Positions 5,855-7,066 of a DNA stretch of 9,462 nt are shown here, in pieces. Below the pieces are notes generated by a model. That model was not told where the DNA came from, did no database searches, and saw only the letters and a program-made list of their open reading frames with translations. The stretch lies in IMG/VR virus record IMGVR_UViG_2571042690_000013. One strand, given 5' to 3'. The stretch comes from a virus. Taxonomy: Duplodnaviria; Heunggongvirae; Uroviricota; Caudoviricetes. The stretch's first letter is position 1. Every line of letters starts with the position of its first letter. Made by a program: the position numbers and the translations under genes.

Positions 5855-6280
5855 CTAGTAACGTCTAAAATACCTAACATTTCCTTGATAAAATGCCAGT
5901 ACACGCTGCATAGCTTCGCTCTTCCGGCACTCGCGACAGATTATATTCAGGCGCCTGTCGTAGCGGCGTATTTCGCCGTCTGGTAACGACCAGATAAGGT
6001 CCGGATCAACCACTGCAGGTTTCTTCACCTTTGCCCTTGAGAGTTTTTTGCGAGCATTTTGCCAGTCCTTACGCGCCTGTTCAGACGGGAATAACCCGTA
6101 ACCAGAGTTGTATACATCGCCACTGGCAACCAGCTCTCTGGCGAGAACACTCATCAGATATCTTGTCGCACCTGTCTTGGCTTCCAGTTGCCGCAACGTC
6201 TCGCGACCGCTCAGACGTACAAGTTCAACAACCTGCCCTTTAATTTTTTCCCGCTCTTCTTGTGTAAATACTTTTGCCAT
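5855..6280 (-). CDS. Hypothetical protein (141 aa), possible winged-helix fold
   Basis: ATG at 6280 preceded by GGAGG 6 nt upstream; the track ORF extends to a TTG at 6295. No family recognised. Confidence 0.55.
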   Translation of the reverse strand: MAKVFTQEEREKIKGQVVELVRLSGRETLRQLEAKTGATRYLMSVLARELVASGDVYNSGYGLFPSEQARKDWQNARKKLSRAKVKKPAVVDPDLIWSLPDGEIRRYDRRLNIICRECRKSEAMQRVLAFYQGNVRYFRRY

Positions 6281-6295
6281 AAGCGCCTCCGGCAA

Positions 6296-7066
6296 TCACT
6301 TTTCCGATACAACACGGCGGGAAGAATCAGTAATCTGTCGAACAATATCCCGGTGCTTGTTCAGCTCCCGCAGCGCGGCGCAGACTCGCTCCCACTTCTG
6401 AACATCACTTTTCGCCCTGCGCAGCGCCAGGTTTGCCCTGCGAAGGGACGGAAAAATCAGCTCATCTGCTTGCGTTTCGGTAAACGATGGCAACGGCTGC
6501 ACAATGTCCGCCACAGTTTCTGTTTTAATTTCTTCCTGTGTTGCGGCTTCCCGGACTGGTAACGCAGCACCTGCTGGCTGAGGAAAGGCCTTACCATCAC
6601 TTTCCGTTACCAGCGCGGCTTTCGGCTCTGCTGGTAAATTATCGCCCGGCATGCAGTAACGAAATTTACCGTTCTGATTAACGCGTGCCAGCCGCCCCGT
6701 TGCGGTTACCACCGCCAGCGTGGAAGCAACCTTGCGAGTACTGACACCGAACTTACCCGCCAGTTCCTCACACGTTTTAGCCCCATCCTGACCGATAAAC
6801 TCAATCATCATGTCTGCGGTAACTTTTTGTTCGACCTCCCCGGTCAGCATATCCTGTGCTTCAGATTTTACTGGCCGCTCTTCGGTTACCCGGGATTCAC
6901 CTTCGCCAGCCAGAAACCAGGTGTGACCAGTTTTATCAACGACGCCTTTTCTTTTGAGTTCCCACAGCTCGTTGACAGCCTCTTCACGACTGATTCCAAG
7001 GCGAGCTGCCACCACATGTGAAGAGGCTTTTTTCAGTGCTTTCAGTGCGTCAGATACGGTTTCCAT
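6296..7066 (-). CDS. Hypothetical protein (256 aa) with two winged-helix-like segments and an acidic Pro/Ala/Glu-rich linker
   Basis: ATG at 7066 preceded by GGAGG 9 nt upstream. Segments VAARLGISREEAVNELWELKRKGVV and CEELAGKFGVSTRKVASTLAVVTATGRLARV look like HTH/wHTH units. No family recognised with confidence. Confidence 0.55.
   Translation of the reverse strand: METVSDALKALKKASSHVVAARLGISREEAVNELWELKRKGVVDKTGHTWFLAGEGESRVTEERPVKSEAQDMLTGEVEQKVTADMMIEFIGQDGAKTCEELAGKFGVSTRKVASTLAVVTATGRLARVNQNGKFRYCMPGDNLPAEPKAALVTESDGKAFPQPAGAALPVREAATQEEIKTETVADIVQPLPSFTETQADELIFPSLRRANLALRRAKSDVQKWERVCAALRELNKHRDIVRQITDSSRRVVSEK

Follow-up and report, generated by a model that had tools for sequence, protein, structure and literature searches.

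A full-length YdaW-family protein and a lambda Ren homologue behind the replication genes of an Escherichia coli prophage

Introduction

ORF-A and ORF-B are two adjacent open reading frames (ORFs) at positions 5855–7066 (minus strand) of a 9,462 nucleotide (nt) stretch of viral DNA, IMG/VR record IMGVR_UViG_2571042690_000013 (Duplodnaviria; Heunggongvirae; Uroviricota; Caudoviricetes). This whole stretch is termed the window. The closest described systems are the Ren protein of bacteriophage lambda, the YdaW protein of the Rac prophage of E. coli K-12 and the DUF977 family of proteins. The classical Rex-sensitive mutants of lambda are reportedly the ren mutants of Toothman and Herskowitz (1980, Virology 102:147). 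The lambda ren gene is non-essential and dispensable for plaque formation. A RexB–Ren interaction is recorded in a yeast two-hybrid map and, in a bacterial two-hybrid assay, the Rex proteins interact with O and with Ren. Several prophage genes, K-12 ydaW among them, were recovered as "blockers" of RcaT, the toxin of retron-Sen2. DUF977 was assigned a winged-helix fold earlier by HHpred and COMPASS, and the domain is also found fused to Fic (PMC2686095).

Similarity of ORF-B to lambda Ren

ORF-B encodes a predicted 141 amino acid (aa) protein. Its features are listed below; structural values are from the AlphaFold 2 (AF2) model, with the predicted local distance difference test (pLDDT) as the measure of confidence.

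5855–6280, minus strand: ORF-B, DUF977/"LygF"/Ren-like protein, 141 aa, start ATG at 6280–6278
6290–6286, minus strand: ribosome-binding site GGAGG of ORF-B, 5-nt spacer, read from the sequence
6089–6208, minus strand: winged-helix core, about residues 25–64, pLDDT about 88–91, preceded by a helix at residues 7–24; aligns to the Ren winged helix
5876–5956, minus strand: C-terminal Ren motif NIICRECRKSEAMQRVLAFYQGN, residues 109–135, from BLASTP and the joint alignment

ORF-B matches Pfam family DUF977 (PF06163) over model positions 1–133 of 134 (97.7 bits against a cut-off of 22.1, E = 7e-28) and phrog_142, "Ren-like exclusion protein", over positions 1–113 of 116 (E = 1.7e-46). The sequence is 100% identical to RefSeq WP_001151161.1, a "DUF977 family protein". 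Phage records name it "LygF" in GenBank and "Ren-like exclusion protein" in RefSeq. Lambda Ren itself (J02459, positions 40280–40570) matches phrog_142 at E = 1.6e-41 and scores nothing in a Pfam search, DUF977 included.

Direct comparisons of the two proteins point the same way. BLASTP of ORF-B against Ren residues 73–92 aligns NIICRECRKSEAMQRVLAFY with NLVFKECRQSAAMKRVLAVY at 60% identity (E = 5e-7). The DUF977 alignment and the Ren alignment are matched by hhalign with 95.9% probability (E = 5e-9), residues 29–135 of ORF-B being paired with residues 19–95 of Ren, and the hidden Markov models (HMMs) of Ren and DUF977 are reciprocal matches, each finding the other at about 1e-5. A joint Ren/DUF977 alignment displays a common winged helix and the motif N.I..ECR.S..M.RVLA.Y. 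Residues N112, E117, C118, R119, S121, M124, R126 and L128 are kept in both clades. Judged by these alignments, ORF-B is a long-form homologue of lambda Ren and is found in the Ren position. The first-pass annotation had placed the two ORFs in the position of lambda ren, and this is borne out by ORF-B itself.

The mean pLDDT of the ORF-B model is 74. A basic helix is predicted at residues 67–86, followed by a disordered region at 86–113 and by C-terminal helices of moderate confidence. The protein is strongly basic (isoelectric point (pI) 10.1, net charge +12), and by computed pI both ORF-A and ORF-B are basic where they are folded. With ORF-B, Foldseek searches of the Protein Data Bank (PDB) and of viral models match nothing beyond generic winged helices of the MarR, GntR and Zalpha types.

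ORF-A is a full-length member of the YdaW/DUF1627 family

ORF-A lies directly upstream of ORF-B and encodes a predicted protein of 256 aa, with the following features.

6296–7066, minus strand: ORF-A, full-length YdaW-family/DUF1627 protein, 256 aa, start ATG at 7066–7064
7079–7075, minus strand: ribosome-binding site GGAGG of ORF-A, 8 nt before the ATG, read from the sequence
6902–7066, minus strand: winged helix 1 (WH1), residues 1–55, AF2 pLDDT 95–97, H-H-H-E-E topology
6821–6901, minus strand: disordered acidic linker 1, residues 56–82, pLDDT 49–71, pI 4.55, poorly conserved and rich in insertions and deletions
6647–6820, minus strand: winged helix 2 (WH2), residues 83–140, AF2 pLDDT 95–97, basic, pI 9.2; matched by Foldseek and profile searches to the minimal winged helices of MarR, ArsR, Zalpha and AspA
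6452–6646, minus strand: disordered acidic linker 2, residues 141–205, pLDDT 52–73, net charge −8, pI 4.05
6299–6451, minus strand: basic amphipathic C-terminal helix, residues 206–256, AF2 helices at 208–237 and 239–255, pLDDT about 89–96, pI 11.4

Residues 91–245 of ORF-A match the whole of Pfam DUF1627 (PF07789; model positions 1–155 of 155) with 328 bits against a cut-off of 28.1 (E = 9.8e-99), and the match to phrog_630 covers model positions 1–252 of 253 (E = 9e-133). The protein is 100% identical to RefSeq WP_000450998.1, "DUF1627 domain-containing protein". Phage records name the full-length form "putative YdaW family protein". The assignment of ORF-A to DUF1627/YdaW, taken jointly with the identity of ORF-B, is practically certain. 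The first-pass annotation had found no nameable family for either ORF; with the two Pfam families, DUF1627 (YdaW) and DUF977 (LygF/Ren-like), and complete identity to RefSeq proteins, this no longer holds.

DUF1627 is a small family, with 154 clusters at 50% identity (E ≤ 1e-3) among 1.84 billion representatives. A scan of one genome per species gives nine loci, in Escherichia, Serratia, Enterobacter and one unclassified bacterium. The scan used a reduced alignment and a single peptide pattern, and the nine loci understate the true range of the family. The top 120 protein homologues and 80 viral loci are all at least 82% identical to the queries, and the diversity of the family was taken from the representative search.

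An alignment of 42 representatives (20%–66% identity) shows the family layout, i.e. WH1, a variable linker, WH2, a variable acidic linker, an IPxF motif and a basic C-terminal helix. WH1 is the best-conserved part, with L34 and W50 invariant, and its conserved unit reads METVLDALKAMGKAT...L...W.L. The second conserved unit is G..T..ELA...G...R...STL......G.V.R. Linker 2 is variable save for the IPxF...P segment; the conserved IPxF motif, at about residues 191–207, closes it. The conserved C-terminal segment is IPxF...P....EIRRTK..L..LE..R.A.R; the helix within it carries EIRRTK..L..LE..R.A.R, with hydrophobic residues every 3–4 positions. The spacing fits a coiled coil or a partner-binding helix, and this helix probably mediates dimerization or the binding of a partner.

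The model confirms two predicted minimal winged-helix domains joined by disordered acidic linkers, with the basic helix at the C-terminal end. The earlier description of the 256 aa protein as two helix-turn-helix (HTH)-like units separated by an acidic low-complexity linker is thus upheld, as is the winged-helix nature of both proteins (AF2 and Foldseek). The relative placement of the domains is undefined because the predicted TM-score (pTM) is only 0.36. WH1 and WH2 match each other in hhalign with 94% probability, which suggests a possible internal duplication.

Foldseek against the PDB gives tandem winged-helix proteins for ORF-A (UFL1-DDRGK1, ScpB, SelB and ESCRT-II; E = 6e-4 to 2e-2) and single winged helices of ArsR, Zalpha and MarR type, which superpose with a root mean square deviation (rmsd) of 1.1–2.5 Å over 53–64 residues. 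A profile search of PDB sequences with ORF-A gives nothing significant, the best match being the winged helix of AspA (E = 1.3e-3). More generally, sequence and profile searches of PDB chains and NCBIfam give no significant or above-threshold match for either protein. The winged-helix fold is confirmed, but no specific functional relative appears among the Foldseek and profile matches, which are to generic winged helices only.

Zalpha-like binding of Z-DNA or Z-RNA was considered and rejected. The structural matches to Zalpha have an rmsd of 1.1–1.9 Å, but by reading of the alignment the equivalents of Asn173 and Tyr177 are conserved in neither WH1 nor WH2, and of the key residues the wing tryptophan, W50, alone is invariant.

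The fold raises the question of whether the two proteins are sequence-specific transcription regulators of the MarR/ArsR type, acting on the downstream delayed-early or moron genes (QueH, hok/sok, the nin-like region) or on host genes. Their best structural matches are MarR, GntR and ArsR repressors, K-12 YdaW is among the predicted E. coli transcription factors, and some short Ren fragments are annotated "MarR family transcriptional regulator". However, no MarR, ArsR or GntR model reaches its cut-off in Pfam or NCBIfam for ORF-A or ORF-B, and the MarR-like phrog_1687 matches at E = 1.4e-7 with no single stretch passing on its own. Membership of the MarR family is rejected on these scores and on the AF2 topology, which differs from a single winged helix flanked by dimerization helices; ORF-A lacks such helices and has long disordered linkers instead. 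The downstream genes are wholly variable between loci, so that there is no conserved regulatory target, and a consensus scan did not detect a promoter belonging to the two genes. A regulatory role is therefore improbable.

A specific paralogy of ORF-A and ORF-B is not claimed. The full-length proteins are not similar (BLASTP E = 0.77; hhalign probability 13%–16%). WH2 of ORF-A matches a Ren plus DUF977 profile with 92.9% probability in hhalign, but the uncorrected pairwise E-value of 3.6e-7 is no better than that of generic Pfam winged-helix matches.

Gene starts and selection

Both ORFs lie on the minus strand within the interval first reported for them, and both have the GGAGG ribosome-binding sites described there. 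The start of ORF-A lies 21 nt past the TAA stop codon of the helicase loader gene (7090–7088), and on the minus strand this junction reads ...GTGAAG TAA TTTTGTCC GGAGG AAATTTTA ATG. The ATG of ORF-B follows the TGA of ORF-A after only 15 nt, and here the minus strand reads ...GAAAAG TGA TTGCC GGAGG CGCTT ATG. A mechanical ORF call had begun ORF-B at TTG 6295, giving 146 aa. This start is ruled out by the GGAGG before ATG 6280 and by the RefSeq coding sequence of 426 nt, which agrees with the ATG 6280 start and a chain length of 141 aa.

By the Nei-Gojobori method, comparison with the homologues in Shigella phage 75/02 Stx gives a ratio of nonsynonymous to synonymous changes (dN/dS) of 0.38 for ORF-A and 0.20 for ORF-B, with dS at 0.8–1.1. 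Protein searches find homologues of the two ORFs in the thousands. Because of the strong Pfam matches, the thousands of homologues and these dN/dS ratios, ORF-A and ORF-B are real genes under purifying selection and are not chance ORFs; the clear coding potential ascribed to them earlier agrees with this.

ORF-A and ORF-B share a reading frame in the window (6278–6298), with the TGA and five codons between them. Two metagenome-derived proteins, of 403 aa and 372 aa, are predicted DUF1627 plus DUF977 fusions. The shared frame is not kept in phage 75/02 Stx nor in the Rac record MN652886, and because of this the fusions probably reflect read-through in gene calling or rare mutations of the stop codon.

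Position in the prophage

ORF calls and a Pfam search identify the window as early-right DNA of a lambdoid prophage, with its genes read on the minus strand. On that strand a Cro-like gene comes first, followed by the YdaT-like gene, the O-like initiator, the DnaC-like loader, ORF-A and ORF-B. The neighboring genes are as follows.

9078–9437, minus strand: YdaT-like gene
7841–9070, minus strand: O-like initiator with an HTH_36 domain
7088–7834, minus strand: DnaC/IstB-like helicase loader (PF01695, E = 7e-19; RefSeq "ATP-binding protein"), in the same operon as ORF-A and ORF-B
5015–5701, minus strand: QueH (PF02677, E = 1e-65)

The window also contains a hok/sok locus and genes for a DUF968/HNH protein, RusA, a Q-like antiterminator, a DNA methyltransferase and tRNAs. 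The 1.5 kb around ORF-A and ORF-B is 100% identical to the chromosomes of many E. coli strains, and this DNA is identical to that of ST131-type strains. In strain 4/1-1 the same prophage adjoins ompW and has genes for an integrase, an excisionase, an exonuclease, dicB, ydfA-D, a LexA-type repressor and Cro. The prophage is a Rac-like lambdoid one of E. coli, integrated at ompW, and the interval comprises the final two genes of its replication module. ORF-A and ORF-B are part of the replication operon since the spacers are only 21 nt and 15 nt, and a consensus scan from the loader to the end of ORF-B found no promoter-like or terminator-like sites.

This location bears on a literal reading of the name "exclusion protein", by which the genes would be prophage defense or superinfection-exclusion genes that shield the lysogen. 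Phrog_142 is placed in the category "moron, auxiliary metabolic gene and host takeover" and carries the name "Ren-like exclusion protein", and accessory genes are frequent near this part of lambdoid genomes. However, genes that lie within the repressed early lytic operon and lack their own promoter-like site should be silent in the lysogen. There is no significant match in PADLOC, and the Ren of phage 434 is annotated "Rex inhibitor". Ren is known genetically as an escape function and not as a defense. Lysogen defense is thus very improbable as the role of these genes.

Conservation of the neighborhood

In the phage collection, 24 records have a relative of ORF-A and 24 have a relative of ORF-B; both are present in 12 records, ORF-A alone in 12 and ORF-B alone in 12. 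All 12 records with both genes have the order ORF-A then ORF-B, 15–46 nt apart. The PPompW phages have an ORF-A relative alone, after two "replication protein" genes, and HannyBb has an ORF-B relative directly after an O-like gene, without a loader. In 75/02 Stx a DnaC-like gene is followed by the relatives of ORF-A and then ORF-B. Lambda Ren relatives are present in 174 phage records and, among the records listed, come directly after a loader gene.

More distant DUF1627 genes are similarly placed. One of their contexts is behind a lambda-P-type loader. In E. ruysiae, Enterobacter mori and the unclassified bacterium, DUF1627 is found behind a DnaC-like loader or behind an O-like gene alone, and in Serratia behind an ORF of 157–186 aa. 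A search with the Ren/DUF977 HMM found no Ren-like gene near any of the distant DUF1627 loci.

In another group of temperate phages, represented by three metagenome or genome contigs, DUF1627 lies behind a RecE-like Exonuc_VIII gene of 660–744 aa, with overlapping start and stop. One of these Exonuc_VIII/DUF1627 loci also has a replication gene of the P2 gpA type. A common phage backbone in which DUF977 and DUF1627 alternate after RecE was considered and rejected; blastn and tblastx find no similarity between PhiR46_1 and the DUF1627/Exonuc_VIII loci.

The genes are directly behind replication genes in nearly all loci inspected, and the conserved neighborhood anticipated for them is found. The slot that closes the replication or recombination genes is conserved, while the upstream partner is variable and the downstream genes are wholly variable. 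The independent occurrence of ORF-A and ORF-B fits modular accessory cassettes.

The fixed order and close spacing in the 12 of 12 records with both genes, the common reading frame in the window and the rare predicted fusions would also suit an obligate two-component unit, e.g. a toxin-antitoxin pair or a heterodimer. Such a unit is largely refuted, each gene being found alone: in half of the records with a relative of either gene the other is missing, the distant DUF1627 loci lack a Ren-like gene nearby, and the shared frame is not kept in other phages. In addition, neither Pfam nor PADLOC gives a match to a toxin-antitoxin family. The likelihood of an obligate pair is accordingly minimal.

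Prevalence in E. coli and proposed function

Prevalence was determined by megablast against 5,426 complete E. coli genomes.

ORF-A-like DNA: 2,767 genomes (51%), up to 9 places per genome
ORF-B-like DNA: 4,040 genomes (74%)
lambda ren: 2,873 genomes (53%)
lambda rexAB: 99 genomes (1.8%)

ORF-A and ORF-B may be early, non-essential accessory proteins that are made along with the replication proteins and have a counter-exclusion role. Both would bind nucleic acid, protein partners or both, and would thereby keep the onset of phage replication from setting off abortive-infection or exclusion systems, whether these belong to the host or to resident prophages. ORF-B would act as Ren does against RexAB for lambda, and the conserved C-terminal helix would be the likely element of partner contact. 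The DNA or partner binding, the dimerization and the counter-exclusion activity that we infer here draw on analogy with Ren and YdaW, and the reading, the likeliest of those considered, is given a probability of roughly 40%. The accessory, exclusion or anti-defense role suggested in the first-pass annotation is plausible on the strength of lambda Ren genetics and the one ydaW screen result.

Several observations weigh against it. The direct functional evidence comes from relatives only, and the ydaW result with RcaT is a single screen match obtained with the truncated K-12 allele. The authors of the bacterial two-hybrid study describe ren as "likely involved in DNA replication". The RefSeq annotation of the strain 4/1-1 prophage shows no rexAB beside the repressor. 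A search of PADLOC-DB v2 gives no significant defense-system match; ORF-B has none at all, and ORF-A has marginal matches, at the winged-helix level, to the HTH regions of CARF, Csa3 and CasR (E = 8e-4 to 0.05). The fold matches are to generic winged helices (E ≥ 6e-4). At the megablast level, Ren-type genes are also far commoner than rexAB, the only system that Ren is known to counter. Since rexAB is present in only 99 of the 5,426 genomes, a count that misses diverged Rex-like systems, a dedicated anti-Rex role cannot explain the prevalence of ORF-A and ORF-B.

The same prevalence (51%–74%, against 1.8% for rexAB) suits a different explanation, that the proteins are accessory factors of replication. 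They would bind the phage origin or replication intermediates, or the complex of initiator, loader and helicase, and tune the initiation or progress of replication, with Ren anti-exclusion as a side effect. The near-invariant place behind replication genes supports this, as do the spacers of 15–21 nt here and the overlapping starts elsewhere, including those of DUF1627 behind a RecE-like exonuclease in another phage group. The interaction of the Rex proteins with O and Ren and the quoted view of ren are also in its favor. However, the upstream partner may be a DnaC-type loader, a lambda-P-type loader, an O-like gene alone or Exonuc_VIII, which argues against a specific replisome partner. Lambda ren is not needed for plaques, each gene is missing from many otherwise similar phages, and the Pfam and PDB sequence and profile searches give no similarity to a known replication protein. 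A replication-linked role is the main rival and a serious one, somewhat less probable than counter-exclusion.

The counter-exclusion reading can be widened. YdaW/DUF1627 and DUF977/Ren-like proteins might form one "Ren-type" winged-helix superfamily with a slot of its own behind the replication or RecE genes in temperate phages of enterobacteria, and might be broad inhibitors of replication-triggered abortive infection, i.e. of Rex-like systems and of retron toxins such as RcaT. This wider proposal is an unlikely one. If it were true, Ren-type proteins would be among the most widespread anti-defense genes in E. coli, present in 51%–74% of complete genomes, and as general inhibitors of abortive infection they would matter for how prophages compete in pathogenic lineages, ST131 and O157 among them.

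Neither family is new to the catalogues, and PHROGs and the RefSeq phage records already label ORF-B as Ren-like. The finding holds but is an ordinary one, i.e. catalogued genes have been re-identified and no new kind of system is described. What is added is an independent confirmation of Ren homology, a corrected start for ORF-B, the domain layout of full-length YdaW and the recognition of the two genes as separable cassettes of one slot. Genes of the ORF-A and ORF-B types are among the commonest in E. coli prophages, with lambda ren as the sole genetic handle. The DUF977–Ren link and the YdaW layout suggest constructs for testing, namely the C-terminal Ren motif, the two winged helices and the basic C-terminal helix.

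Other features of the window

QueH is a tRNA-modification moron that follows ORF-B after a gap of 153 nt, in a prophage that also bears tRNA genes. Two phage-borne tRNA genes are present on the minus strand, at 1–59 and 160–235. One has a CAT anticodon and is called tRNA-Met by ARAGORN and tRNA-Ile by RefSeq; the other is cut by the end of the window and is tRNA-Arg in RefSeq.

A type I toxin-antitoxin locus of the hok/sok type is located at 4613–4947 (minus strand). The sok RNA (RF01794, 120 bits) is at 4772–4947, and a hokD-like ORF adjoins it. The Q-like antitermination protein (1910–2731, minus strand, 273 aa) has four CxxCxGxG repeats that resemble the DnaJ-type zinc-finger module.

The O-like gene contains a perfect 252-bp tandem duplication (7863–8113 and 8115–8365) by which 84 aa are repeated in frame. 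The protein has 409 aa here, whereas that of strain 4/1-1 has 320 aa. A single copy is present in the closest of the complete E. coli genomes (EC958, JJ1886 and others), where a 601-nt query aligns in two pieces on 349 nt. Also inside the O-like gene, at 8631–8720, are five to six tandem 15-bp repeats similar to TCAAnnnTTGAnGGG, which encode a repeated DPS(N/T)(I/V/F)D peptide. By analogy with the lambda origin within gene O, these repeats are probably origin iterons.

Comparison with known systems

The winged helices of MarR, ArsR, GntR and Zalpha proteins have the same unit fold as those of ORF-A (rmsd 1.1–2.5 Å for the ArsR, Zalpha and MarR matches). Tandem winged helices are also found in ScpB, in the C-terminus of SelB and in UFL1-DDRGK1 (E about 6e-4 to 3e-3), but ORF-A is not a member of these families by sequence.

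YdaW of the K-12 Rac prophage (b1361, 186 aa) is 55% identical to ORF-A over residues 1–154, which include both winged helices. The ydaW gene comes directly after the DnaC-like ydaV, the same position as that of ORF-A after the loader. However, the Rac deletion truncates K-12 YdaW, which has no linker 2, IPxF motif or C-terminal helix. The intact form is seen in ORF-A and likewise in the inducible phages Rac-SA53 and 75/02 Stx.

ORF-B matches the full-length model of DUF977/"LygF", known from Salmonella and E. coli prophages. Some DUF977 domains are fused to Fic, whereas ORF-B stands alone without a Fic domain.

Lambda Ren (96 aa) is encoded directly downstream of P. It has in common with ORF-B the PHROG family (142), the winged-helix core, the C-terminal motif and a basic charge, and both genes occupy the same site, closing the replication module of the early rightward operon. 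ORF-B exceeds Ren by 45 residues: the N-terminus is extended by 10, and about 30 are inserted after the winged helix, before the C-terminal motif. The insertion, which Ren lacks, is in part the basic helix at 67–86 and in part disordered. Outside the C-terminal motif the identity of the two proteins is in the twilight zone (20%–31%). The upstream loader is of the DnaC/IstB type here and of the lambda-P type in lambda, and in the window ORF-A lies between the loader and ORF-B.

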